Below, one piece after another: positions 3,140 to 20,665 of a stretch of DNA of 36,868 bases. Source of the stretch: a virus (Duplodnaviria > Caudoviricetes). Position 1 is the stretch's first letter. Every line of letters begins with the position of its first letter. Below the pieces are notes generated by a model that saw only the letters and a program-made list of their open reading frames with translations, did not search any database and was not told the DNA's origin. The position numbers were made by a program, and so were the translations under genes. The stretch lies in IMG/VR virus record IMGVR_UViG_3300023173_000043, positions 1 through 36,868 of that record. One strand, written 5' to 3'.

Positions 3140-4393
3140 TTAGTATCCAGCCACGGCGTCGAGAGGTTCGTAGTCGTCATTGTCAAAATCAGTCCTTGTG
3201 TAGTAAGGAACACGGGCCATCTGGTCTACATAACTGAGCGCATCAATAAGATCATCATGAACTAAGACAGAAGGGAAATTTCCTGCTTCATCTTCAAATC
3301 GGGCGTTCCACGCGCCTTTCTTGAGGTGAATAAGCCTGTTCTCAAATCGACCTGCCAGAGCCCACAAAATGCGGTCTTCTTTCTTTTGGTTGCCGTGAGA
3401 TAAGGGTTCCAGCCTGAACACCCTGCTAGTGCGGCGCATCATGTCCTGTAGCGGAGAAAACACCGCCTGTTGTGCTATCCCCTTCTCAATACCTGTGATA
3501 ACAGGCCGGTGCTTTTCTACGGTGCTAAAGATATTTTTAGCTGTATCATCAAGAGACCACTGACCGTGGATGATATCTTCAACGTACCAGTGACCTTCAT
3601 CGTTGACGTACACCACAGCAATGGCTGAGTCGTCACGCTTCTTAGACTTACGCATCCCCACGTTTTTAAATCCAGCTAAGTCAATGCCTAGATAAACGTC
3701 ATACCTTCCTTGGGGTCTTTCTTCGTAGTAATCAAAGCTATCTGGACTGAAGTGTCCTTGCGTCTTAGCGTCAAAGGACGCCATGTACTCTTGTAAGAAG
3801 GCGTAATTAGGAAGGGTGCTTCTTGCGTGTTCGATCTCCTCCCTATCCACTATCGGATTATCAAAGGAGGTGTAGTGGAAGTGAGCCCAATCTTTCCAGT
3901 CGTGAGCACCCAAATAAAGATCATAAAAATGGTTCCGGCCTTCGGGGGTTCCGATAAACAACGCCGTGCCTTTCCTATCAGATAACGCAGGACGCAAGAT
4001 ACTTTCAAATACATCTGGCTTCATGAACGCATATTCGTCCATGACCAAATGCTTTAAGCTAACACCCCGCAATGTGTCCGGCCTGTCTGCGCCCTTTAGG
4101 TGAATCTTGTGCCCACCGTGCAAGGTTAGCTCCAGATTGTTAATGTTTTGGTGGGTAATAAACTGACCGGCTACCTCATACAAGGTATTCCACATAACGT
4201 CCCGCGCTTGACCTTGGGTCGGAGCCACGTAAAAGACCTTGCCAGGCTTTCCATTAAGGGCAGATAGAATCAGGCTTACCGCCGCCAGATAGGACTTTCC
4301 CGTCCGTCTACCAGCGGCAATCACCTTAAATCGGGCGGCGTTCGAAAGAACGTCCCGTTGCCAATCCAATAGCGATAGGTCTAAGGTTTCCAC
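3140..4393 (-). CDS. terL: Terminase large subunit
   Basis: Walker A 'AAGRRTGKS', Walker B 'LVMDE', 'GTPEG' coupling motif, nuclease motifs 'GIDLAG' and 'HDDLIDAL'. Confidence 0.95.
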   Translation of the reverse strand: METLDLSLLDWQRDVLSNAARFKVIAAGRRTGKSYLAAVSLILSALNGKPGKVFYVAPTQGQARDVMWNTLYEVAGQFITHQNINNLELTLHGGHKIHLKGADRPDTLRGVSLKHLVMDEYAFMKPDVFESILRPALSDRKGTALFIGTPEGRNHFYDLYLGAHDWKDWAHFHYTSFDNPIVDREEIEHARSTLPNYAFLQEYMASFDAKTQGHFSPDSFDYYEERPQGRYDVYLGIDLAGFKNVGMRKSKKRDDSAIAVVYVNDEGHWYVEDIIHGQWSLDDTAKNIFSTVEKHRPVITGIEKGIAQQAVFSPLQDMMRRTSRVFRLEPLSHGNQKKEDRILWALAGRFENRLIHLKKGAWNARFEDEAGNFPSVLVHDDLIDALSYVDQMARVPYYTRTDFDNDDYEPLDAVAGY

Positions 4394-4397
4394 CTAC

Positions 4398-4629
4398 CTA
4401 GCCCTTCTTTCGCGGGGGGCCATATCCCCGTCCTTTTCCGTGGGCAGATTTTGCAGGGCTCTTTCCATCTTTTCGAGTTCTATCCCATCCGCCGCCTTTT
4501 GGCGGAGTTTTATTCAAGACTTTTACGATCTTGCCACAGCCCCGCTTACACTTCTTCCTAGCCTCAGCCGCAGAATTAGCGTATATGCCGGTATTACGAC
4601 CGACCCTCGAAGAAATACAATTTCGTCAA
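4398..4629 (-). pseudogene. Small basic protein gene with an apparent 1-nt frameshift (sequence error or pseudogene)
   Basis: GGAGG RBS plus TTG at 4629 gives MTKLYFFEG; the +1 frame continues GRNTGIYANSAAEARKKCKRGCGK...GYGPPRKKG* to 4398; span is 232 nt (3n+1). Confidence 0.55.
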
Positions 4630-4676
4630 GGGGAGCACCCTCCTGCTGGCCGCGCCAACTGCCTTTGGACCAATTA

Positions 4677-5024
4677 CTAATCCTCTTCGATATCCAAGAT
4701 TTCACCATGCCCATTCGGGGCATATATGTCTTCGGCATCGGATACCGTCTTTTCTTCTATCTTCGCTTCCAAACCCGAGATGTTAATTTGAATGGCCGAT
4801 CCACCATGATTCGGAATGCTTGAAAAAGAAACCTGGGGAAGAAGTCTGCTAGAAACCTCCTTGATCGCAACGTGCTGACACTTATGGTCATCATCCATTG
4901 CTGTCTGAAAAAGGAAATCGACAAACTCCTCTACCCGATCATTCGACAAAAACCTCGATTTCATCCGGTGAAGCTGGTCAGACATCTCCATCTTCGTTAA
5001 TGCTCGGATATGTTTCTGAGGCAT
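4677..5024 (-). CDS. Probable terminase small subunit
   Basis: Upstream of terL; 'AMDDDHKCQ..AIK....RLLP...IQINISGL' pattern recalled from TerS-position genes of marine podoviruses. Confidence 0.65.
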   Translation of the reverse strand: MPQKHIRALTKMEMSDQLHRMKSRFLSNDRVEEFVDFLFQTAMDDDHKCQHVAIKEVSSRLLPQVSFSSIPNHGGSAIQINISGLEAKIEEKTVSDAEDIYAPNGHGEILDIEED

Positions 5025-5059
5025 TTTCCTAAAAACCTTACAATTCGGCCTGAGAAGCC

Positions 5060-5088
5060 CTTATAAGGGTAATTAGGGGGGATAGCAA
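5060..5088 (-). promoter_or_regulatory. Sigma70-like promoter upstream of terS
   Basis: TTGCTA-17nt-TATAAG on minus; the -10 lies within the perfect palindrome CCCTTATAAGGG (5058-5069). Confidence 0.45.
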
Positions 5089-5281
5089 GTGTAAACGAGG
5101 GGTTTGCTAGTCTTTTTCTTTTTTTGCTACTGGAGCCCTCTGGTGGCTTTGTAGGCCATGTGTCGCTTTTGGCTACATGTTCTACGTGGAACATTCGGTT
5201 TATTCGATAAAAATTAAGTTATTGATCTGGAAGGTAGATCAATTCTATTTTCTTTTTTGAAAGTTGAGGTGGGTACTATCA

Positions 5282-5434
5282 ATTGTGCGAAGTACTGACC
5301 CCTCCCTCGGGGTCTATCCCGGTCAGAACGGACGTTTCTGCTGACATTCATAGGATCAATCCTAAGGGATTGACCTATTCACCAGCAGAATGTCCTTATC
5401 TTCCGTGGGATAGGCCCTCGGTCAGTACCATAAT
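5282..5434 (+). repeat. Long imperfect inverted repeat (~150-nt hairpin)
   Basis: Nested pairs GTACTGACC/GGTCAGTAC, GGGTCTATCCC/GGGATAGGCCC, TTCTGCTG/CAGCAGAA, ATAGG/CCTAT, TCAATCC/GGATTGA. Confidence 0.8.
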
Positions 5435-5543
5435 GGAATTAAGTAGACCGCGTGGATCGTGTAGGCTGAGAAATAGGAGTGTGAATGGGGGAAGGAGCCA
5501 CCGAAGGTAAATAACAACACCATCACGGAGGGTTATCGCTCGT

Positions 5544-5652
5544 GTATTGAAAAATAACCCAACCGTAAATTATCCGTAAGACGGATAATTATAAAGAAGT
5601 CGCCGGATTGCTCCGGCTCCATCTTATATACGGTTGAGTCATTTGTCAATAC
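5544..5652 (-). promoter_or_regulatory. Branched stem-loop containing a consensus sigma70 promoter (Frpo/sso-like)
   Basis: 25-bp stem with 3 mismatches (5544-5567 with 5629-5652) plus two inner hairpins; minus strand reads TTGACA(5649-5644)-17nt-TAAGAT(5626-5621). Confidence 0.7.
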
Positions 5653-5664
5653 GTCTCGCTACTC

Positions 5665-5739
5665 GTATCCCTTCGGGATACAGAAACCTTCGGTTTCCAT
5701 TCGCCAAAAAGGAATCTTACGCACCTGCTCCGCAGGCGC
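5665..5739 (-). other. Cluster of three mini-hairpins with C-GNA-G triloops on the minus strand
   Basis: Minus strand: GTATCCC-GAA-GGGATAC, GAAACC-GAA-GGTTTC, CCTGC-GGA-GCAGG. Confidence 0.8.
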
Positions 5740-6242
5740 AGTCATTGGACTGGCGTTAAGCCTATGGCTTATCGCGTGTCCATGACGGCTCAAGCTAGCC
5801 CAGATCATCCCCGGCAAAACCAGCCGATCAAGATGTTTCGTTGCAACGTTCTTTGTCTTACCCGCCCAGATGGGACTTTAATAGATTCTCCCCGGCTGGA
5901 TTTCCCGGCTCTGTCTGAGCGAGCTTTATCCCTCTTGGTAGTTGTAATCGTATAGCCGACGCCTGATCTGATTCATATCTGGATTGTTCAGGTTTTCTGA
6001 CCATTTTTCGCGCCATTGGGAAGCGGCTAATATCCCAGCAGAGCCCCCGGCAAATCAAGGGTCGGAAAAATAGCGGTCTCCCAGCAGATATTCCGGCATA
6101 AATCCCTTCGGGATTTGCCTCCATTTATCTGCTGTGACCCTCCGCGATTTTTCCGAGTCCTGCGGACCAAGCCCTTGATTTACCGGTGTCTCCGTGGGAA
6201 TTGCCGCTTCAGCCAATGTCGGCTGAAAAATGGAGAAAACCC

Positions 6243-6530
6243 ATGAACAATCCAGATTTGAACCAGGGCGTCGCCTATACGAACAACTACAGCAAGAGCG
6301 ACAAATCTCCCTCACACAGAGGGGAAATCAACATCCGAGGAGAGATCTTTAAAGTCTCCATCTGGACAGGCAAGACAAAGAACGGCAACGAATACATCTC
6401 GATGCGGTTTCAAGATCCAGTCGAGGCTGATCTGGCCCAGCTTGAGGCCCTCAAGGAGAAGTACGAAAATAAGCCGGAGGCTGAACGCATCAGTCACAAT
6501 GACGATCACCGGCAGGAGAAGGAGGCGTAA
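6243..6530 (+). CDS. Small DUF736-like beta-rich protein, putative ssDNA-binding; first early gene
   Basis: GGAG RBS plus ATG at 6243; 'NQGVAYTN...KSPSHRGEINIRGEIFKVSIWTGKTKNGNEYISMRF' matches the recalled phage P-x-Y/H-x-G...W...G..Y/F.S family. Confidence 0.7.
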   Translation: MNNPDLNQGVAYTNNYSKSDKSPSHRGEINIRGEIFKVSIWTGKTKNGNEYISMRFQDPVEADLAQLEALKEKYENKPEAERISHNDDHRQEKEA

Positions 6531-6543
6531 GCCTCCTTTTTTT
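6521..6543 (+). terminator. Rho-independent terminator
   Basis: GGAGGC-GTAA-GCCTCC followed by T7. Confidence 0.85.
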
Positions 6544-6741
6544 GCTCATGAGAAACCTTCAAGCAACCAACCCGCTAACCATCATTGACCATCCAACCAC
6601 CCGGAAGGATGGGAAATGTGGAGATGTGGAGATGCGTCTTGTGCCAACTCGCACACGACACACGCAACACACCAAAGATGTGCCACAACGCAAGATACCT
6701 GGCACGTTGCAACACTTACTATCCAACTAAGGAGAAATACC

Positions 6742-7134
6742 ATGGGACTAGATCAATACGCATTTGCAACCCGCGAAGCCATTGGCACTGAAGATAAAAC
6801 ACCAAAAGAAATAGGCGATGGCTTTTACTGGCGCAAACACGCCAAGCTACAGGCATTCTTTGATAGTGCTGTCAGCGCGGGTGAGGTAGAGCTCTTCAAT
6901 AAAGACGATACCTTCAACTGTAACCCCATCAAGCTCACACTTGAGGTCGTGAAAACACTTGAGCGTGTGCTCAATAACAGAGGTCTGCCTGAATCTTATG
7001 GTGGTTTCTTCTTTGGTCATCAGTTCCAAGATGAATCTGCTCTTGAGTACAGGGAACAAGACCTTGCCTTCTGTAAGTGGGCCGAGAAATCTATCAAGAA
7101 AGGCCACCATGTTTACTACGACTGCTGGTATTAA
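6742..7134 (+). CDS. Conserved phage hypothetical protein (MGLDQY...YWRKH...GFFFG family)
   Basis: TAAGGAG RBS before ATG 6742; recognisable motifs. Confidence 0.8.
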   Translation: MGLDQYAFATREAIGTEDKTPKEIGDGFYWRKHAKLQAFFDSAVSAGEVELFNKDDTFNCNPIKLTLEVVKTLERVLNNRGLPESYGGFFFGHQFQDESALEYREQDLAFCKWAEKSIKKGHHVYYDCWY

Positions 7135-7144
7135 GGAGGAGCAC

Positions 7145-7363
7145 ATGGCTACGTATGAGCTTTATTACAACGAACATTTGGTATGTGCTGAATGCGGTAA
7201 GCAGGACTACCACATGAACTTTTCCTTTCACCTACCAGAAGCCAATCTGTACGACGACGAAGAGTGTGCAACTTGGTGCCATATTTGTGAAACAGAAGCC
7301 AGCTTGCTCGAAGACTGGGAATACGAACTCAAACAGAAATCTTTAAAGGAGAACAAGCAATGA
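7145..7363 (+). CDS. Hypothetical Zn-ribbon protein
   Basis: TAAGGAGG RBS; CAEC...CHIC. Confidence 0.75.
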   Translation: MATYELYYNEHLVCAECGKQDYHMNFSFHLPEANLYDDEECATWCHICETEASLLEDWEYELKQKSLKENKQ

Positions 7364-7794
7364 GAAAAGACTACTTGTGTTTTGTTTCAATGGGCATGGG
7401 CTCTTGCTGGGGATACGGCGAGACACCTGCCGAAGCCGTTAGCTATATGCTAATAGAAATCAATGATTGGGCTGATTACTACAAAGTATCCGACATCTAT
7501 ATACCTTCAACCATCTATGACCTCACTGAGTACGGTGGATTTGTTGCTGATCACAGAGGTTTATACGGTCAACTGCCGGGCGATGGCGAAGGGGAGATGC
7601 AATACTCCGAGAAACCCCTTGAGCCCTCCCAATATGCCCTGTCCAAAACACCCAAAACAAGAACAAAAAACGGTCGATGGTCAGAGCTTAAGTCTTTGAG
7701 GTCAGCCCTAACAACACACTTCTACCCAACCTATAACGAGGTCATGGAAGCTAAAGACCAAGCACAAAAGGAAGCAAATGATGGAGATAAGTGA
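7360..7794 (+). CDS. Hypothetical protein
   Basis: ATGA overlap, AGGAG RBS, 144 aa. Confidence 0.75.
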   Translation: MRKDYLCFVSMGMGSCWGYGETPAEAVSYMLIEINDWADYYKVSDIYIPSTIYDLTEYGGFVADHRGLYGQLPGDGEGEMQYSEKPLEPSQYALSKTPKTRTKNGRWSELKSLRSALTTHFYPTYNEVMEAKDQAQKEANDGDK

Positions 7795-8002
7795 AGAGCC
7801 AAAGACAAAGTATTACGTTCAGTTTTATTCCATAAAAGATTGCAAATGGATAACGCTTCATAAATATCAATACTATTTTGATGCCGTTATTTATCTTGGA
7901 CAGGTGATGAAGTCTTCACCCAAAGAAGATCATCGCGTACTGAAAGTTAATAGCGAAACTGCCATCGAAGTTCCATCAATTGATAAAGAACTAATGGAAT
8001 AA
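7778..8002 (+). CDS. Hypothetical protein
   Basis: Overlaps the preceding gene, AAGGA RBS. Confidence 0.65.
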   Translation: MMEISEEPKTKYYVQFYSIKDCKWITLHKYQYYFDAVIYLGQVMKSSPKEDHRVLKVNSETAIEVPSIDKELME

Positions 8003-8163
8003 ATAAAGCCGAGCGGCAACACATAATTAACGACACATACTATGTCGATGTCGTGAAATGATAACCGAAAGATAGTGCATCTTTGGCATTCTTGGTGCAT
8101 TATTAGCAATGTTAGTCACACATGGGCTAACTTAAACAACTGTCAATATTATGGAGAAACATT

Positions 8164-9012
8164 ATGGCTGACAGAAAAGATCGATATCAACGTATCGTTG
8201 ATCTTATATTCAAAGCAATGGAGACGCCTGAGTCTTGGCAAAAGACCTGGCAATCCATGTCAACACGCCCCCGAAATCATGTCAGTGGACACAAGTACAC
8301 AGGCATGAACGCCATAACTTGCATGGTGGACATGGCAATTAACGAGTACAAGGACGGACATTACGTCACTTTCAACCAAGCAGAGCAGTTAGGTCTGTCA
8401 GTTAAAGGGCAGAAAGCAACGCCTATTATCTTTATGGGCAAAGCAAAAGATAAGAAGTCAGATGATCCAGAAAAGACTTACAAGTTTGCCAAGATTTACA
8501 ACTGCTGGAACATCAACAAACTAGGGCTCTATCTTCCAGAGCCTGAGATCAAACCCAACAAACTAGAAGCTCCGCACGTTATAGCTGACGCTCTCTGCGT
8601 AGCAGTAGAGAATAATGCAAGCTATGACCCATGCTATATCCCAAGCATTGACACCATCAAAATGCCGATGGAGGGACAGTTTGAGCGAGAGCATCACTAT
8701 CAATCTACCTTCTACCATGAGTGTGTCCATGCAACTGGCGCAAAGAAAAGGTTAGATAGGAAGATAGAAAATCCATTCGGGTCTGAGCTCTATGCTATCG
8801 AAGAGTTAGTGGCAGAGATAGGCAGTGTCTTGTTGTGTGCTGATCTGGGTATCAAATATGAGATTCAGAATCATGCAAGCTATCTAAATAGCTGGAAGAA
8901 AGCTATCAAAGAAGACAGTAACATACTGGTTAAGTCAGCAAGAAAAGCACAGAACGCCGTTGATTATATCCATAGCCAGATGGATCTAATGAAGCAACAA
9001 AATGCGGCGTGA
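8164..9012 (+). CDS. ardC: ArdC-like anti-restriction protein (ssDNA-binding N-domain plus zincin-like metallopeptidase)
   Basis: 'WQKTW...PRNHVSGHKYTGMN', 'YVTFNQA...VKGQKA', 'D.I.MP...F', 'FYHECVHATG...RLDR', 'YAIEELVAEIGS', 'HASYLNSW'. Confidence 0.93.
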   Translation: MADRKDRYQRIVDLIFKAMETPESWQKTWQSMSTRPRNHVSGHKYTGMNAITCMVDMAINEYKDGHYVTFNQAEQLGLSVKGQKATPIIFMGKAKDKKSDDPEKTYKFAKIYNCWNINKLGLYLPEPEIKPNKLEAPHVIADALCVAVENNASYDPCYIPSIDTIKMPMEGQFEREHHYQSTFYHECVHATGAKKRLDRKIENPFGSELYAIEELVAEIGSVLLCADLGIKYEIQNHASYLNSWKKAIKEDSNILVKSARKAQNAVDYIHSQMDLMKQQNAA

Positions 9013-10820: not shown

Positions 10821-10992
10821 CTTTATCTGTAGTTCCTGCGACGAGCAATTCAAAAGTTGGAATGCCGCTGACATAGACCTTGTCATGTACCCAGAACTAG
10901 AAGGCAAAGCCTACTGCCTAGACTGTCTTGAGTATGTAGAAGATGAGATCCAAGCTGAGCGACACGCTGACTACCAACATGGAGACATCTAA
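10813..10992 (+). CDS. Small Zn-finger protein (59 aa, below the ORF-track cutoff)
   Basis: GGAGG RBS; MASFICSSC...YCLDCLEYVEDEIQAERHADYQHGDI*. Confidence 0.75.
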   Translation: MASFICSSCDEQFKSWNAADIDLVMYPELEGKAYCLDCLEYVEDEIQAERHADYQHGDI

Positions 10993-11156
10993 TGAGTAAG
11001 CATGAACAACTCATCTTGGATATATGCCAAATATCTGAAGCGTTAGCTGACGATCCTGAGTATGACCAGGATTGGAAGCCGCGCTTAGAAAGGTTGCTTG
11101 GCTTTGTAGAAGCCCAAGCTGAACGACACGCTAACTGCCAGCACGGAGATATCTAA
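10992..11156 (+). CDS. Small hypothetical protein (54 aa)
   Basis: TAATG overlap; MSKHEQLILD...FVEAQAERHANCQHGDI*. Confidence 0.7.
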   Translation: MSKHEQLILDICQISEALADDPEYDQDWKPRLERLLGFVEAQAERHANCQHGDI

Positions 11157-11426
11157 ATGGAATATGAACAAGACTTTCCTTTCAAAGAGTACCGCACTGA
11201 GGGAGGAGACTTCTTCAGCAGTATAGACGAAGCCCTTGATGCTGGCTTTGAGATGGATCAGATCTGGTCTGTCACTGAGTCAGGCGAGAATGACTACTGC
11301 CATATCTATGGGCCTCCCCATCACTGGGTCAACCTCCTTGGATATACAGCCACCAAGGAACGGCACGACAACAACACCTACTACATCGAGGACTGGAGTA
11401 ACTTCATGGAGGCATCTAATGAGTAA
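11157..11426 (+). CDS. Hypothetical acidic protein
   Basis: GGAG RBS; 'QIWSV...YGPPHHWVNLLGY'. Confidence 0.75.
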   Translation: MEYEQDFPFKEYRTEGGDFFSSIDEALDAGFEMDQIWSVTESGENDYCHIYGPPHHWVNLLGYTATKERHDNNTYYIEDWSNFMEASNE

Positions 11427-11577
11427 CCAAGAAAAAGCTACCTTAGAAAAGCTAGAACAGATTCATTTCTGCATATCTGAACACATAGACAAAGAAGATC
11501 TAGACCTACATCTGCTTGAGATGGCATTGGAATTGGTAGAGGACATAAGAGAACCCTACCTCCCCGGCAAATGTTAG
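11419..11577 (+). CDS. Small hypothetical protein
   Basis: GGAGG RBS, ATG 11419, 'ALELVEDIREPY'. Confidence 0.65.
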   Translation: MSNQEKATLEKLEQIHFCISEHIDKEDLDLHLLEMALELVEDIREPYLPGKC

Positions 11578-12501: not shown

Positions 12502-12765
12502 TCAAAAGGGTATCTCAAGATCTTCTTTCTTTTTAGAAGATCCTTCATAGTTATTGACGGAAAAGTAAATACTCTCACCCGACTTTGCTTCTAAGAGCTC
12601 AAGGTTTAGCCATTCCGCGCCAGGATTTTCGTCTCGCTTTGACCTAAGCCAAGGCAAAAACTCCTCCCATTTAACACCTACTGTTGCCTTAACAAAATCA
12701 GGCATTGAATCCAGTGGCTTCTTTGCGTAAAGCCCTGCCACAAATTCTTTGTCGTTGTTACTCAT
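12502..12765 (-). CDS. Putative SSB-like protein with acidic 'EIPF' tail
   Basis: Follows the SSAP gene; C-terminal DLEIPF resembles the SSB interaction tail. Confidence 0.55.
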   Translation of the reverse strand: MSNNDKEFVAGLYAKKPLDSMPDFVKATVGVKWEEFLPWLRSKRDENPGAEWLNLELLEAKSGESIYFSVNNYEGSSKKKEDLEIPF

Positions 12766-13367
12766 GCCGCCGCTCCTTTTCTTACTGCATTAAATTCATC
12801 GGTTTTGAAGTACGCTCTTTCTTGGGTGGTGAATACACCGCCCTTGGTTGAAGCAACCCATAAGGATTCTTGATCTTCATTAGATATATCTTGCAAGTTC
12901 TCAAGAACCTTATAAGGATCATTTGCTCTGATACCTTCTTTGATATTAAAGATGGCTTCAAAGTTAGCCTTCATTGCCTCATTGTGTTTAACAAGATGCT
13001 CGACAGCCTCTTGTGTTTTCTGCTGATTGATTGCCCCAGCTACCTCGTCTGCGCTAGCAATCTCTGACCCAGCAAGGCCGAAGAATGCCAACGCTCGACC
13101 CACAGCACTGGTCTCAGCGTTTTCAAATGCAGAGGTTTTGTTGATGCGAGAAGCGGATCGTACTTCCTCAGCAAATCCAGTAGAGATAACTCGACCGGAC
13201 TCATCTGAGATCTCTGTCTTGATAACAACCTTCTCGTCATCAGCGACAACAACATTACTTGCGATAGTGTAATTAGGGTGCGCTTGTCTGAACTCACTTA
13301 CCCGTAAGGCTACGGTTTTGTATGCCTTACCATGAATGTCGACCACACCTGTATCACCCTTGCCCAT
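12762..13367 (-). CDS. Single-strand annealing recombinase (Rad52/Sak-like)
   Basis: TAAGGAG RBS before ATG 13367; 'IHGKAYKTVALRV..FR', 'TGFAEE', 'ENAETSAVGRALAFFG'. Confidence 0.7.
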   Translation of the reverse strand: MGKGDTGVVDIHGKAYKTVALRVSEFRQAHPNYTIASNVVVADDEKVVIKTEISDESGRVISTGFAEEVRSASRINKTSAFENAETSAVGRALAFFGLAGSEIASADEVAGAINQQKTQEAVEHLVKHNEAMKANFEAIFNIKEGIRANDPYKVLENLQDISNEDQESLWVASTKGGVFTTQERAYFKTDEFNAVRKGAAA

Positions 13368-13411
13368 AACTTTTCTCCTTAATAAATGCAAAGTATCCCG
13401 AAGGACAGCAA

Positions 13412-13475
13412 TAGTATAAACACATGGGAAAAGATTAGCAACACTTGCCAAAGATGCATTAATACATGGTAAACT
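13412..13475. promoter_or_regulatory. Divergent sigma70-like promoters
   Basis: Minus: TTGCTA-18-TATACT (13441-13412); plus: extended -10 TGgTAAACT (13467-13475); AT-rich divergent intergenic region. Confidence 0.45.
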
Positions 13476-14671: not shown

Positions 14672-14680
14672 TGTTTATGC

Positions 14681-14789
14681 GGTTTCCCTAGTTTCCCTAG
14701 TTTCCCTGTATTTCAGAGAGGGGGTGGTTAGTGACCACTAACGACCCTTCCTCGGTAAGCCGGGGAAACCGGGGAAACCCGGGAAACCA
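14681..14789. repeat. Inverted sets of 9-bp iteron-like repeats; candidate replication origin
   Basis: 3x GTTTCCCT(A/G) facing 3x (G/C)GGGAAACC, with central palindrome GTTAGTG-AC-CACTAAC. Confidence 0.75.
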
Positions 14790-15682: not shown

Positions 15683-18600
15683 CTATCTTGGCTTTCTTTC
15701 TAGCAAACGCTCAGTAATCTGCTCTGTAGTTTCAAATCCAACTAGATCAGAAGCATTCCTGATACCCCTTAGAGACTGCTTAACAAAGGGGAGTGCGTCA
15801 ATGACAGGCTCTCGAAGATACCTGCTACCTGTCATAGCCCCGAGTGTTCTCTCTGCCACATCGTAAGGCCTGTCAAGCACAACAGGACGAGAACCCTCTA
15901 AAAATGTACTAATCCATCCATCTTCTTGTATTCTGCCCCATTGATAATCATTAAGACCAACGGTATTCATGGTCAGCAATGATGCCCACGCATCACCGTA
16001 ACCCCTAACCATTCCTCCGATGCTGGCATTACCATCACCAAACAAGAACTGTCTACCCTCATTGATAACCGCAAAACCACCAGCACCCCACAAAGCATAA
16101 CGCTTAAGAAAGCCCACAGCTTTATCAACCTCACCTCTCCGAAGGTTATCCACAACCTCACGCAGAGCAAGAGCCTGTTGCTTGATGACAAAACCACGCA
16201 ATGCCCACAAGCCCCGAAGGTCTGGATGCCTAGCCCATGCCGCTGGCCTACCAGCAGATGAGATAAGCTGTTGTTGGCCCAGCGCGGCGACTAATAACTG
16301 CTCAATCAGGTCTGCTTGCTCAGGAGTATAGGCATCAAAGTCCTTGCCATGTTTAAGTAATCCTTTCTTGATTGCAGATAACTCTTGCGGAGTAAAGTAA
16401 AAGCCCCACATATCAGCAAGGTTATCTTCTTTAGCCAGCTTGATCGCGCTATTCCACGCAGTGTCCATAACACCACGCTTACCTACTCGGTCAAAGGCCG
16501 CAAACAAAGACCCCTTCATGGCAAAGTCCGTCAGGTTCCTCATGTTAGAAGCCAGCTTATGCATCCTTCCTCGATCTACAGCAAGGGATTCATTTATCCT
16601 ATTAACAAATTCTCCGTAGGTCTGGTTGTTTAAGCCCATCCTCTGAAGATCTAGTGGGCTCTTAGTAATCGCATCATCTAGCATCTCTCTTGAGCCAAAC
16701 TTGGCGGCGGATAATGGAACGTCAGCCAGATTCAAGATCGCAGACATAGGACCAGCAAGAGTGGTTAGATAGGTAAAAGAATTGAGTGCTTGCAATAAGG
16801 GATGCGGGGTTCTGGAGGATCCCGTTATGTTTTGAGTAATAAGGCTTATCGCATACTCAGCCTTGTCAGCATCTATCCCTCGGCGAATAAGATCATCCTG
16901 CCAAGCCTTCATAAATTCTTCGGGAGTCATGGGAACTAACTGACCCTTCTTATTCTTCTTTAGATTGGTTGGTTTAAAACCAGTCATCCTAGAAATCTGA
17001 TACAACTTCTCCAGGTTAAACGTGCGCTGGATGTCAGTCAGAATAGGATTCTCATAATCATCAGGATTAGGACGCTTTGCCTTGCGTCTCTGATTAACTC
17101 TATCATTTAGATAACTACCCCGGCTTCTTCTCTTCAGCCCTGAATCCGCTGGCAGTTGCGTCCACCAATCATCTTCAGCCTCAATCTCCTCCGGGGGGAT
17201 CTTTTCTTTTTGCTCGTCAGCCATCTTCTTTGCGGCGGCTTTATTCAGGCGCGTTGCGCCATAGGTTACATAGGGATCGTATTCTGCTCCGCTAATCGCC
17301 GTCATGTTTCTTCTGTTCTTTCGCCCTGACCAAGCAATGTATTCCATTAGCGCATTGATTTGTTCTTCATCCAGCTTTCCGGTCATCAAGCGGCGAAGCT
17401 CACTCAGGGAAGTAGCATATCCCTCTCTACCCTTAAGCCCTTTAGATAAAAAGTTAGCAGAGAAATCAAGATAGATTCCCTTGATCTCTTTATCTGTTTC
17501 CATTCTTTGGATGACAGGAGCCAACCTTTCGATAAGTCCAGTTTCATCCATCTCTTTATTGATGGTTCGTAGCCAGGTCTCATCTATTCGCTGATACAAA
17601 GCTCCAAGCCGGGGGCTTACCTCGGCCATAATGGTATCGCTTACGCCACGAAGCCATTCATTGTAGATACCTTTGAAGCTAGCCTTTAATCCCTGCCATA
17701 CCTCACCGACGTTGGTAGCATCACGAAGCCTTGGTGCACCAACAATAGAATCATCGACATTATCAAATGGCCTATCAGCACGGAGGTCACTGAAGACACG
17801 ATTGTAGTCAGAGTTGGGATCTATTTTTTCTGCAATCGACTCAACTTCAGGCGTTCTTTTTATCGACTCAACTTCAGGCGTTCTTTTTGGTGTTGACCTG
17901 CCTCCAAGCATTCCTACTGGCTGTTGCTCCGGCTGGCTTTTCGGCTTTTGCTTTGGCCTTGGCTGGCTTTCTCTGATCTTTTTCATCACAAAGCCGCCAG
18001 TGCTATTGGGCACATTTTCAGCAAACCCTGCGGCCTCAAGCCTATACATTAAAGGAGTTATGCGTTCTCTATAGTCAATACCGAGGATGGTTTCTGATAG
18101 TTTATCTTTGCTAGTATTTCTATTTTTGTTTAGCGTTATTCGATTAAATGTCCCACCAACAGGAATATCATCAAAGTTTCTTGCAAGATCTCTGGCAAGC
18201 TCATCTTTCAATACATCATCTGCACCGGGATCTAAGCCGTCCCAATCTCTAAACAAAGTATATACATCATCATAACCATCTGGCGTTATAAAACGTTCAG
18301 GCACATGACCGTATTTTTTTCTAGCCGCTTCAACTTGTGATTCTTTTTTCTGTGGCTCAGGCCGAGGTTCGGGTCGAGGTTCAGGTCGAGGTTCAGATCG
18401 AGGCCTAGGCTGAGTCTCATATCCATATTGAGCTCTACTACCTAAGTATTCTCCAAATGAATTAGAGGCTGATGATTGGCCGCCTAATTGATTTGTTTTT
18501 GATGCTTGACTGTTGGCTGAAACCTGCTTTCTCGCCTCGTATTGCCGAACCTCTCTTAGTTTCTGGGCTTGCTCATAGGCTTCTTCACTTTGCTGTGTCA

Positions 18601-20665
18601 CCTTGTGGTTAAAGCCTGTGGCATCAACAGTTTCAAGTGAGTCCCGACCAACAGCAAACTGAGACTTTCTGCCATTAACAAGCTGAACCTGTACCCTTCC
18701 GTTCTCTAACTCTCCAAGAACTCTGACCGGCCTCAGGTCTCCCTTATTTGTTCTGTATAAAAGGATAGCTCCGGGCTCTACCTGCTGTTCAATCATATCT
18801 GGATCTACACGATTGTTACCTGTCTTTGCGCCGGGACGAGAGGCTACGCTAGGGTCAAAGATCCTGCCGACAACAGTGCCTACCGTACCGCCAAGAGCCG
18901 CCATTGCCGCCCTCTCTTCTGCGGTACGCCCCGACCCAGCGCCATAGGCAATACCTTCAACGCCTCCGGTAGCCATGTTGCTAAGCCCGTACTTGGCACC
19001 CTGCCTAGCTAGTGCCGTGCCAGTAGCAATGCCAGGGACAAGCTCTTGATACAAAGCACTTACAGGGTTTTCCGTACGATACTGATCCATTTCATTACGA
19101 ACTTCGCCAAGGATGTCAGAGTAAGACCTGTCTCCAAGCAAAGATCTAACCCCGGCTTCAGCCTCATCAGCTAATGCAAAGGTTGCACCTTGAGCAATGT
19201 TTCTTAAGCCGCCGACCAGTATTTTATTCTGCTCGCTCTGCCGTCTTGCCTCTATAGCACGAAGGTCGTCATCAGTAGGCATGAATTCATCGTATAAAGA
19301 TGAATCATCTGTAACTTTTATCGATGGAGATGGGAGCCTTTCGGCTAATTCCTCATCGGTCGGCATAAAGTCCTCATAATTTAGCGGGGCTTTAACCTCT
19401 GGTATGCCCTTACGCTTTTCAGCCGTAACTTCTACCTCTTCCAGCGCAGGTAAATCAAAGGCAGGATCTCCTGTTATTATGCTAGGAGGCGGTGGCCTTA
19501 TGCCCTTACGCTTTTTAGCAGTAACTTCCACTTCGTTTAAGGGAACCCTTATCCCATCACGTTGCTCAGCAGTAACCTCTATCTCCTCTAGAGGAGGCAG
19601 GTCATAATCTGGATTCCCTGTTATCAGCTTTGGGGGCGGCGGTCTAATGCCTTTACGTTTCTTAGCAGTAACCTCAACAGGATTTAATGGCTGTCTTATT
19701 CCATCGCGTTTCTGAGCGGTAACCTCAACCTCTTGCAAAAAAGGGAGATCAAAGTCTGGATTCCCTGTAATTATTTCCGGTCGAGAAGGTCTGAAGTTAG
19801 GGGTTGGTTTCTTTTCTGCGGTGACCTCTACCTCGTTTAAAGGTGGTCTTATTCCATCACGCTTTTGCGCTGTTACCTGTATTTCTTTTAGCCACTGGTT
19901 TGGATCAGCTTTCTTTTTTTGAGCCTCAACTACAATATCCTTTATGACTAAACCAATGGGCACTTTTCTTTTTTGAGCAGTAACGATCACCTCCTCTAAA
20001 GGAGGAAACTCAAAGTCTGGGTTGCCAGTCCTTAGCTTTGGGGGCGGTATATCTTGCGGCCTTAGCTCAGGCTTTCTTGTTGCTGTAACCTCTACCTCTT
20101 TAAGTGGCGGAAGTTTCTTTTTGGCTGTGACTTCCACCTCTTTGAGCTTTGGATTTATTTCTTCAGCAAATGTTCCGACTACTTCTCTAGCGTCTTCTAC
20201 GCTAGTCAAAGCCCTGTTCCCTGCTATACCTTCATAATTGCTATCACCAGATGTAGTAGGGAGACCTGCCCACTCTTTTGCTAGCTCATTAATAAGGTTC
20301 TCAGTAAAATCTCCTTTGCCTTTTTTAGACCTTCTGATCCTGTCATCAATAAGGACATCAGCCATAAGGTCTTGGGTCTCTTCATCAAACAGCCTGTCAT
20401 CTTTAAACCATGACGGCTTTCTTCTCTGAAGATCCTCAAGAGTCTTGTTGATGATTTGGTATTTGCCAGCGGCAGACTGACCACCACTTTCAATCCGCTC
20501 ACGTTGCAACTCCTTGACCTCACCAATAGTCATCTCGGTGAGATCAACGGTGTCGCCTCCATGAAGCACATTGTATCGGTTGTCACTCTCGAGACTTCCA
20601 ATCCAGTTTCTAAGGGAGTCGTAGTTTTCTTTTGGTGCTGGAGCTCTACTCATAAGAAATGCCAA
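15683..20665 (-). CDS. Large internal virion/DNA-ejection protein with N-terminal lysozyme-like domain and TonB-box-like repeats (true start possibly ATG 20653)
   Basis: N-terminal 'ES...YN...DLTEMTIGEV...SAAGKYQII..TL...F....QD...LAKEWAGLP' (lambda-R/GH104-like muramidase); DNA-transfer-protein-like 'QGATFALADEAEA'; last gene of the structural operon. Confidence 0.85.
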   Translation of the reverse strand: MAFLMSRAPAPKENYDSLRNWIGSLESDNRYNVLHGGDTVDLTEMTIGEVKELQRERIESGGQSAAGKYQIINKTLEDLQRRKPSWFKDDRLFDEETQDLMADVLIDDRIRRSKKGKGDFTENLINELAKEWAGLPTTSGDSNYEGIAGNRALTSVEDAREVVGTFAEEINPKLKEVEVTAKKKLPPLKEVEVTATRKPELRPQDIPPPKLRTGNPDFEFPPLEEVIVTAQKRKVPIGLVIKDIVVEAQKKKADPNQWLKEIQVTAQKRDGIRPPLNEVEVTAEKKPTPNFRPSRPEIITGNPDFDLPFLQEVEVTAQKRDGIRQPLNPVEVTAKKRKGIRPPPPKLITGNPDYDLPPLEEIEVTAEQRDGIRVPLNEVEVTAKKRKGIRPPPPSIITGDPAFDLPALEEVEVTAEKRKGIPEVKAPLNYEDFMPTDEELAERLPSPSIKVTDDSSLYDEFMPTDDDLRAIEARRQSEQNKILVGGLRNIAQGATFALADEAEAGVRSLLGDRSYSDILGEVRNEMDQYRTENPVSALYQELVPGIATGTALARQGAKYGLSNMATGGVEGIAYGAGSGRTAEERAAMAALGGTVGTVVGRIFDPSVASRPGAKTGNNRVDPDMIEQQVEPGAILLYRTNKGDLRPVRVLGELENGRVQVQLVNGRKSQFAVGRDSLETVDATGFNHKVTQQSEEAYEQAQKLREVRQYEARKQVSANSQASKTNQLGGQSSASNSFGEYLGSRAQYGYETQPRPRSEPRPEPRPEPRPEPQKKESQVEAARKKYGHVPERFITPDGYDDVYTLFRDWDGLDPGADDVLKDELARDLARNFDDIPVGGTFNRITLNKNRNTSKDKLSETILGIDYRERITPLMYRLEAAGFAENVPNSTGGFVMKKIRESQPRPKQKPKSQPEQQPVGMLGGRSTPKRTPEVESIKRTPEVESIAEKIDPNSDYNRVFSDLRADRPFDNVDDSIVGAPRLRDATNVGEVWQGLKASFKGIYNEWLRGVSDTIMAEVSPRLGALYQRIDETWLRTINKEMDETGLIERLAPVIQRMETDKEIKGIYLDFSANFLSKGLKGREGYATSLSELRRLMTGKLDEEQINALMEYIAWSGRKNRRNMTAISGAEYDPYVTYGATRLNKAAAKKMADEQKEKIPPEEIEAEDDWWTQLPADSGLKRRSRGSYLNDRVNQRRKAKRPNPDDYENPILTDIQRTFNLEKLYQISRMTGFKPTNLKKNKKGQLVPMTPEEFMKAWQDDLIRRGIDADKAEYAISLITQNITGSSRTPHPLLQALNSFTYLTTLAGPMSAILNLADVPLSAAKFGSREMLDDAITKSPLDLQRMGLNNQTYGEFVNRINESLAVDRGRMHKLASNMRNLTDFAMKGSLFAAFDRVGKRGVMDTAWNSAIKLAKEDNLADMWGFYFTPQELSAIKKGLLKHGKDFDAYTPEQADLIEQLLVAALGQQQLISSAGRPAAWARHPDLRGLWALRGFVIKQQALALREVVDNLRRGEVDKAVGFLKRYALWGAGGFAVINEGRQFLFGDGNASIGGMVRGYGDAWASLLTMNTVGLNDYQWGRIQEDGWISTFLEGSRPVVLDRPYDVAERTLGAMTGSRYLREPVIDALPFVKQSLRGIRNASDLVGFETTEQITERLLERKPR
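17835..17888. repeat. Perfect 27-bp in-frame tandem duplication (KRTPEVESI x2)
   Basis: ATCGACTCAACTTCAGGCGTTCTTTTT twice. Confidence 0.9.
19412..20146 (-). repeat. 11 coding repeats of L-x-E-V-x-V-T-A-x-K-R with Pro-rich spacers
   Basis: LKEVEVTAKKK, LKEVEVTATRK, LEEVIVTAQKR, IKDIVVEAQKK, LKEIQVTAQKR, LNEVEVTAEKK, LQEVEVTAQKR, LNPVEVTAKKR, LEEIEVTAEQR, LNEVEVTAKKR, LEEVEVTAEKR. Confidence 0.95.

Follow-up and report, generated by a model that had tools for sequence, protein, structure and literature searches.

A gene-length fold-back beside the terminase genes of tailed phages, conserved and selected for folding on one strand, probably as DNA

Single-strand folds described so far and the phage locus

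In Frpo, ssi and ssp elements, one DNA strand folds into a mimic of a duplex promoter that presents −35 and −10 elements to the host RNA polymerase. These elements often lie upstream of an ssb gene, and their stem also stalls complementary-strand synthesis (PMC11541004; bioRxiv 10.64898/2026.01.09.698686). The rod-like fold-back described here (hereafter, the rod) resembles them in being a stable fold of one DNA strand that is favoured over its complement. Frpo elements, however, were sought in upstream regulatory regions of 50–350 bp and the available text of these sources describes no paired coding sequence (CDS) or terminator, whereas in the rod a whole gene is paired. Frpo elements are also part of the T-strand leading region of conjugative elements, while the rod occurs in the terminase, portal and capsid context of a tailed dsDNA phage. 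Because it lies outside a conjugative leading region and pairs a whole gene, we do not count the rod as a member of the Frpo/ssp group, a comparison made by description. The early promoters of N4 likewise come from a tailed phage and carry C(GNA)G hairpins on the template strand, as do the rods, except for that of locus L199 at a 4-bp stem. N4 also employs ssDNA-binding proteins as transcription cofactors; its promoters differ in that a virion RNA polymerase recognises them as hairpins of 5 bp and in having no mirror gene (PMC4496689; PMC13037366). In DNA, mini-hairpins of such stability form with GNA loops only; they have been described from ssDNA origins and from N4 promoters (PMC13037366). 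No RNA polymerase family was matched among the large open reading frames (ORFs) of the window that were scanned, several of its virion proteins being without assignment.

Integron attC sites are imperfect palindromes that are similarly selected for one-strand folding, with an energy difference between the strands (PMC5371416). They are short IntI substrates without a gene inside, whereas rods span 650–960 nt and the window genome (G000) has no match to the integrase family PF00589. A link with a temperate lifestyle was considered and set aside as uninformative: an integrase was found in one of two rod-bearing and none of three rod-less records, and the ORF lists suggest that integrase-like genes were missed. 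Obelisks, delta-like and viroid-like coding rods are circular RNA replicons, folded as bulged rods of about 1 kb with one ORF. The phage rod is similar in size, bulged shape and single ORF, but it has a fixed phage DNA locus, DNA-type signatures, no Rfam ribozyme match and a mirror derived from the gene. Membership of a known RNA family was also set aside, as positions 4300–7400 gave only three weak eukaryotic Rfam hits, all far below the cut-off; a circular RNA would leave no trace in contigs. Ordinary DUF736/PHROG 7364 proteins belong to the same family as the rod gene product but sit in recombination modules, carry an acidic tail and have no mirror. DUF736 is a core (backbone) gene of Mesorhizobium conjugative elements (ICEs; PMC8627217), and a preprint, in its available text, describes a covarying motif upstream of DUF736 genes that is read as an ncRNA (10.64898/2026.10.21.760802) and could bear on novelty. 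The statement in a first-pass annotation of the sequence that no equivalent is described in tailed phages agrees with our search of the open-access literature, in which no gene-length fold-back was found; subscription papers were outside its scope. The principle of an ssDNA promoter is known from Frpo; the whole-gene mirror and the phage setting were not found described.

The window, i.e., the whole stretch of 36,868 nucleotides analysed (IMG/VR record IMGVR_UViG_3300023173_000043), is a near-complete 36.9-kb genome of an uncultured tailed phage whose sequence is present in salt-marsh and seawater runs. Its minus strand encodes the large terminase subunit (TerL), portal and capsid genes, while small early genes and ArdC are on the plus strand; the rod occupies the interval from terS to the first early gene (Table 1). 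The rod-bearing phages are marine, and none of them is in culture. No DNA match to the window was found among cultured phages, the nearest cultured TerL being about 40% identical over half its length. Nor was a close prophage found in genome_contigs, where a single locus (TerL 47%) lacks the rod. The AAA helicase-like protein of the window was matched in none of five related records. Two more hairpins, at 5568–5590 (10-bp stem) and 5602–5617, lie just downstream of the leftward promoter at 5649, and short contigs of one marine RNA run cover 5143–5599. On the other side, positions 6560–6760, after the terminator of the rod gene, are C/A-rich with repeated GTGCCA-like words and contain no plus-strand sigma70-like site scoring 6.5 or more.

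Table 1. Features of the rod and its surroundings in window coordinates.
Feature	Position	Strand	Remarks
Putative terminase small subunit (terS)	4677..5024	-	Upstream of terL (3140-4393); anchors the genomic position of the element
Sigma70-like promoter	5621..5649	-	TTGACA-17-TAAGAT; faces terS; outside the rod, separate
Two tandem C(GAA)G mini-hairpins	5665-5681, 5683-5697	-	3' foot of the minus-strand rod
Mirror arm	5692..6106	-	Degenerate counterpart of the gene, without coding capacity, from promoter and leader through CDS to terminator; tracks the gene allele in relatives
C(GGA)G mini-hairpin	5724..5736	-	Inside the distal mirror
Promoter-like site in mirror	6029..6058	-	TTGATT-18-GATATT with extended TG; would be the non-template strand once the promoter folds
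Apex hairpin	6100..6116	-	7-bp stem AAATCCC (6100-6106) / GGGATTT (6110-6116) with TTC between; C(GAA)G triloop on minus
Gene arm	6110..6557	+	Leader, RBS, CDS, terminator
Side hairpin C(GCA)G	6157..6167	- (template strand)	Just above the -35 element
Paired counterpart in gene arm	6175..6203	+	TTGATT-17-GAATTG, without -7T; poor dsDNA promoter score
DUF736-like / PHROG 7364 protein, ssDNA-binding-type	6243..6530	+	95 aa; four strands and a helix, without acidic D..PF tail
Intrinsic-terminator-like hairpin	6520..6543	+	GTAA loop, then T7 run; rod ends 14 nt past it

Geometry, distribution and co-variation of the two arms

The arms align collinearly from the apex out to exactly 5692 and 6557, which makes the proposed fold-back of ~870 nt a real one of 866 nt. 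A number of 346 columns are matched, next to 47 substitutions and 37 gaps (mostly 1–2 nt), and the gene arm carries one 15-nt insertion relative to the mirror. The outer 6 bp (5692–5697) can form a local hairpin instead. On the minus strand, the mirror resembles the sense strand of the gene and pairs with its template strand. The gene arm has the contents ascribed to it, including a GGAG at 6232–6235 ahead of the CDS. Gaps are mostly of 1–2 nt, as had been reported, but interruptions do not recur every ~5–14 bp: perfect runs range from 1 to 14 nt with a mean of 4.5, and regular spacing was discarded since the runs are not significantly more even than expected from interruptions placed at random (p = 0.06). 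Likewise, the mirrored RBS and ATG are disrupted in the window, yet intact in the relative L006.

A fold-back chimera or misassembly is rejected because the arms are only ~73% alike over their blast alignment, independent identical contigs exist and the sequence words recur in many runs. In particular, an independent 8.6-kb contig (L130) is base-identical over 5601–6600 and L183 is identical to the window over its 618 nt. Half or more of the words of 5200–7200 are contained in 12 of the 24 listed runs, two of which are flagged as possible sources.

A full-length mirror is present in 12 of the 13 distinct contigs that include the gene and its upstream DNA. The rod-bearing contigs form at least four sequence groups, with proteins 24–41% identical to that of the window or to each other. 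Rods occur in two of 80 terL loci (L004 and L006), many loci being too short upstream to tell. A shared-motif search added L083 and, among 103 metagenome loci that are mostly chance matches, L119, L136, L158, L130 and, in part, L183; a single-protein scan with the window gene recovered no locus. Among 69 new terS loci, gene and rod occur together in seven and only one of the two in none. Conversely, the rod is absent from all 62 loci of ordinary family homologues, from both Chaseviridae genes and from the second paralogs in G001 and G002. A quick terL tree (48 rows) requires at least three changes for the rod, and a rod ~80% like that of L004 adjoins a TerL of 55% identity. As it is missing from most relatives, the cassette is accessory, and these sequence comparisons indicate that it moves with the early region. 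A 1.8-kb palindrome of 94% identity without the gene (L134:1–1829) is unrelated, possibly an assembly artefact, and was set aside.

The first-pass annotation had read the rod as a maintained structure rather than a decayed duplication, which the relatives bear out: each mirror follows its own allele, and bulge sites are shared. At the sites that differ between two genes, mirrors carry the base of their own rather than the other allele in ratios of 38:0 and 32:1 (45 sites) for L081/L119, 38:3 and 37:3 (49 sites) for L199/L213 and 84:3 and 74:6 (102 sites) for L006/L203, counts that are somewhat inflated by aligning each mirror to its own gene. Upon cross-alignment of one pair, own-allele tracking persists (24 vs. 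7 and 19 vs. 6). The closest pair, L081/L136, shows mixed tracking (4 vs. 1 and 3 vs. 4 of nine sites). Synonymous differences are tracked by both mirrors in 13 of 22 and nine of 16 cases. Mirror bulge sites are common to the pair members in 9/12 and 9/14 cases with a null near 1.7, although sharing in L006/L203 is not significant (5/14; p = 0.12). As stems follow synonymous changes while bulges stay in place, selection on structure is implied, by compensatory mutation or short-patch copying. It is unusual by itself that hundreds of non-coding bases evolve in step with a protein-coding gene, position by position and on a single DNA strand. L082 is an exception, combining gene allele A with the mirror of another allele so that only the head pairs. 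In L082:3470–4300 and L083:2170–2692, mirror and gene alleles are reciprocally mismatched across a near-identical 230-nt head; these loci are either natural recombinants or assembly chimeras. The L082 mirror preserves a gene allele not otherwise recovered and, if the locus is real, whole-gene pairing is dispensable for a time.

Folding strand and nature of the folded molecule

Folding of positions 5680–6570 with DNA parameters yields −306 kcal/mol for the minus and −261 kcal/mol for the plus strand; with RNA parameters, these values are −521 and −453 kcal/mol, the minus strand being better by about 68. Compared with shuffled sequences, both strands are far more stable with either parameter set (z = −24.5 to −33.6; none of 20 shuffles as good in each case). 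The asymmetry between the strands, which had been anticipated, is present as well: the DNA gap of −45.9 kcal/mol lies beyond all 40 mirrors mutated without regard to strand (mean gap −2.1, sd 6.2 kcal/mol). The mismatches point in the same direction. The window has 13 G.T mismatches on the minus strand vs. two on the plus strand, and on the minus strand G.A (13) and G.G (8) make up 21 of the 32 transversion mismatches, close to what the first manual alignment had suggested. Pooling six rods, which are not fully independent of each other, the template strand has G.T in excess of A.C (82 vs. 17), G.G of C.C (35 vs. 2), G.A of C.T (70 vs. 36) and T.T of A.A (35 vs. 11), and all four biases exceed the expectation from base composition. 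The element is conserved and selected for folding on the template strand of its gene.

Whether the folded molecule is DNA or RNA can be approached from the same mismatches. Across the six rods, the twelve mismatch rates follow DNA energies (rho = 0.88, p = 1e-4) more closely than RNA energies (rho = 0.51, p = 0.09) and, per base, G.T is no commoner than G.A or G.G. Among isolated 1x1 mismatches in four rods, G.A is not favoured over C.T (15 vs. 15). C(GNA)G triloops with a stem of at least 4 bp are concentrated at the rods: five of the six on the minus strand of the window fall within 5665–6167, and 13 occur in 12.3 kb of six rod loci vs. four in 86.7 kb of 70 rod-less loci, at least one of those counted in L203 being the terminator of the gene. 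The L081 group has a side hairpin at the same place as the window, and one triloop hairpin switches between GCA and GAA among alleles; in L199, no GNA triloop sits on a stem of 4 bp. The idea that the TNC loops derive from plus-strand UNCG tetraloops was rejected, as the stems are in triloop register. Taken together, the energy ranking and the mini-hairpin clustering make DNA, as first suggested, quite likely to be the folded molecule. A four-way junction was observed on the template strand in the rod head of L199 (1330–1470) and the same region of L213, beside the promoter-like site; it carries C(GAA)G and C(GTAA)G mini-hairpins. Entry with the whole strand single-stranded is disfavoured: elsewhere in the early region, the minus strand has no advantage in folding (−14.1 vs. 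−15.1 kcal/mol per 150 nt), so exposure of ssDNA is probably local.

Encoded protein, predicted transcription and rival explanations

The rod gene product matches the profile phrog_7364 (E = 4e-11), which is annotated as ssDNA-binding. DUF736 (PF05284) is matched at an E value of 0.01 or better by 45 of 105 aligned homologues, though not by the window protein itself. The predicted model (pLDDT 84) consists of four strands and a helix in a topology that fits PC4/Pur-alpha. The structural matches to Pur-alpha (Z = 4.6; rmsd 10.1 over 79) and PC4 (Z = 4.2; rmsd 4.9 over 64) are weak and not clear of background, Foldseek against the PDB gave a best E value of 0.3, and a profile search of solved structures returned nothing credible. 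From its family annotation and gene context, next to these weak fold matches, the product is putatively an ssDNA-binding protein. In ten inspected loci, ordinary homologues adjoin genes that probably encode annealing and exonuclease-type proteins, i.e., recombination modules. An acidic D..P(F/W) tail, of the kind that recruits host enzymes in SSB biology, was found in 73/101 and in 87/102 other homologues, while it is missing from the copies linked to rods and from the 18 homologues closest to these; rod-linked proteins may therefore shield DNA without recruiting host enzymes.

In seven of seven rods, matrix scoring for sigma70-like sites 30–65 nt ahead of the start gives the mirror a better top score than the gene arm, with mirror-site spacers of 15–18. 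Against shuffles, the mirror sites reach p = 0.003–0.23, with p < 0.05 in three of the seven, two of them relatives. The gene strand paired with the mirror site lacks −11A, −7T or the right spacing, and on the plus strand of the window no promoter-like site scoring 6.5 or more occurs from apex to ATG. L006 and L203 have kept TTGCG(A/T)-16-TA(G/C)ATT despite different spacers, paired upstream of the predicted start. In duplex DNA, the mirror site doubles as a normal leftward promoter. All seven rods examined extend from the promoter head to an end that lies between ~30 nt before the stop codon and just past the terminator.

Based on these observations, we propose, with a probability of about 0.5, that gene and mirror form a fold-back transcription unit that is active only when the template strand is single-stranded. 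It would work in the manner of Frpo, with the fold extended over the whole gene. The mirror would supply the missing non-template strand from promoter to terminator, including the −35 and −10 bases for the host sigma70 RNA polymerase. The gene's own promoter would be weak in duplex DNA because of the deviations mentioned above, and folding would complete it. Transcription of ssDNA leaves RNA:DNA hybrids unless the RNA is displaced, as seen for the N4 virion RNA polymerase (PMC4496689); pairing over the whole CDS would let the mRNA be displaced and released with no lasting hybrid. Bulges and non-Watson–Crick pairs would keep the arms too different to recombine or to extrude from duplex DNA. The product would be an extra, tail-less ssDNA-binding paralog that coats exposed phage ssDNA, so the unit would act as an ssDNA sensor with a built-in response. 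The weakest step is the source of the ssDNA. Resection from 5' to 3' of the first-injected genome end would be the likeliest, strand-displacement or rolling-circle replication being the alternative. In P22-type phages, packaging is headful from a pac site near terS; combined with end resection, this mode would expose exactly this strand. A more far-reaching version, which we regard as less likely than not, is a programmed ssDNA stage at the first-entering end, in which the gene-length duplex caps the end, completes a promoter absent from duplex DNA and yields a stealth ssDNA-binding protein, which in time would switch the unit off.

Other explanations account for part of these observations. 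The rod may be mainly a DNA end cap or self-primer, in which the folded 3' tail of the minus strand keeps the end out of reach of nucleases and end sensors and possibly serves as primer for refilling, while the gene is transcribed normally from duplex DNA. The mismatch bias and DNA energies suit this equally well, as do the position beside terS and, in the window, the GAA motif, which withstands 3' exonuclease (PMC13037366) and forms two mini-hairpins at the 3' foot; fold-back copying would moreover explain the allele tracking. Yet an end cap need not match a transcription unit, whereas the terminator is where rods end, and this gene is the only one they accompany; normal duplex transcription fits poorly with the lack, in the window, of plus-strand promoter-like sites scoring 6.5 or more between apex and ATG, the foot hairpins of L136 are not GNA, and shared distal bulges argue against wholesale re-copying. 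We consider this explanation unlikely. Somewhat less probable still is a minus-strand RNA, i.e., a bulged rod of ~870 nt serving as decoy, regulator or ligand of the encoded protein. The G.U and G.G bias also suits RNA, the RNA folding gap between minus and plus amounts to 38–97 kcal/mol, isolated G.A is not favoured in four rods and one RNA-library contig (5933–6310) spans the apex. RNA energies would, however, put G.T far ahead, which is not observed, the hairpins are in triloop rather than UNCG/GNRA register and no minus-strand promoter-like site exists in the window from 6760 to the right end of the rod. The RNA-library contigs, moreover, carry no strand and may be DNA: pieces from three runs lie on the CDS and one run bridges the apex, while within 4300–8200 two runs cover the CDS only and not the mirror, a missing cover that proves nothing.

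The valid leftward dsDNA promoter in the mirror could also produce, from duplex DNA, a sense-like RNA that pairs with the template strand of the gene as an R-loop and opens or primes it. Its pairing partners would be the same as in the rod, but pairing is conserved upstream of the predicted start, through the −35 and the apex, which would be absent from such an RNA, and we find this scenario improbable. A decayed or repeatedly regenerated inverted duplication without function, its asymmetry due to strand-biased mutation, is very improbable. Its patchy distribution, the discordant locus L082 and G.T as the expected outcome of single-strand deamination fit it; it is at odds with mirrors that track alleles while sharing bulges, with gaps that almost equal substitutions in number and with a strand asymmetry outside all 40 nulls. 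Deamination bias, in particular, is rejected because the ratio of G.G to C.C and the T>G excess are not deamination products.

The rod itself is real, conserved and selected on one strand, probably as DNA, and its function is predicted. Transcription as predicted would mean that an ssDNA state of tailed dsDNA phages is functional and merits regulation, and the rod would be a sequence marker of that state. Single-strand promoters would then no longer be confined to plasmids but include phages, their principle would reach beyond the promoter to the whole gene, and the rod would offer a compact ssDNA-responsive expression module. A programmed stage at the entering end, if true, would make the rod a self-duplexing ssDNA gene, a genetic element of a new class that is possibly recurrent across unrelated phages.

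Elsewhere in the window, at 12502–13451 (minus strand), a putative DNA-annealing gene (phrog_11717) is followed by a second small gene with an acidic EIPF tail, which likely encodes the ordinary SSB, a protein from a family different from that of the rod gene. Short repeats of the GTTTCCC type form inverted arrays at 14673–14778, between the genes for the AAA helicase-like and NinB-like proteins, and are a candidate replication origin. Direct repeats of 43–52 nt span the junctions of three small early genes (10950–11447). Finally, a virion protein of 1660 aa (19404–20165, 17835–17888) has a lysozyme-like N-terminus and numerous repeats of the EVEVTA type, and in its gene a stretch of 27 nt is perfectly duplicated in tandem.
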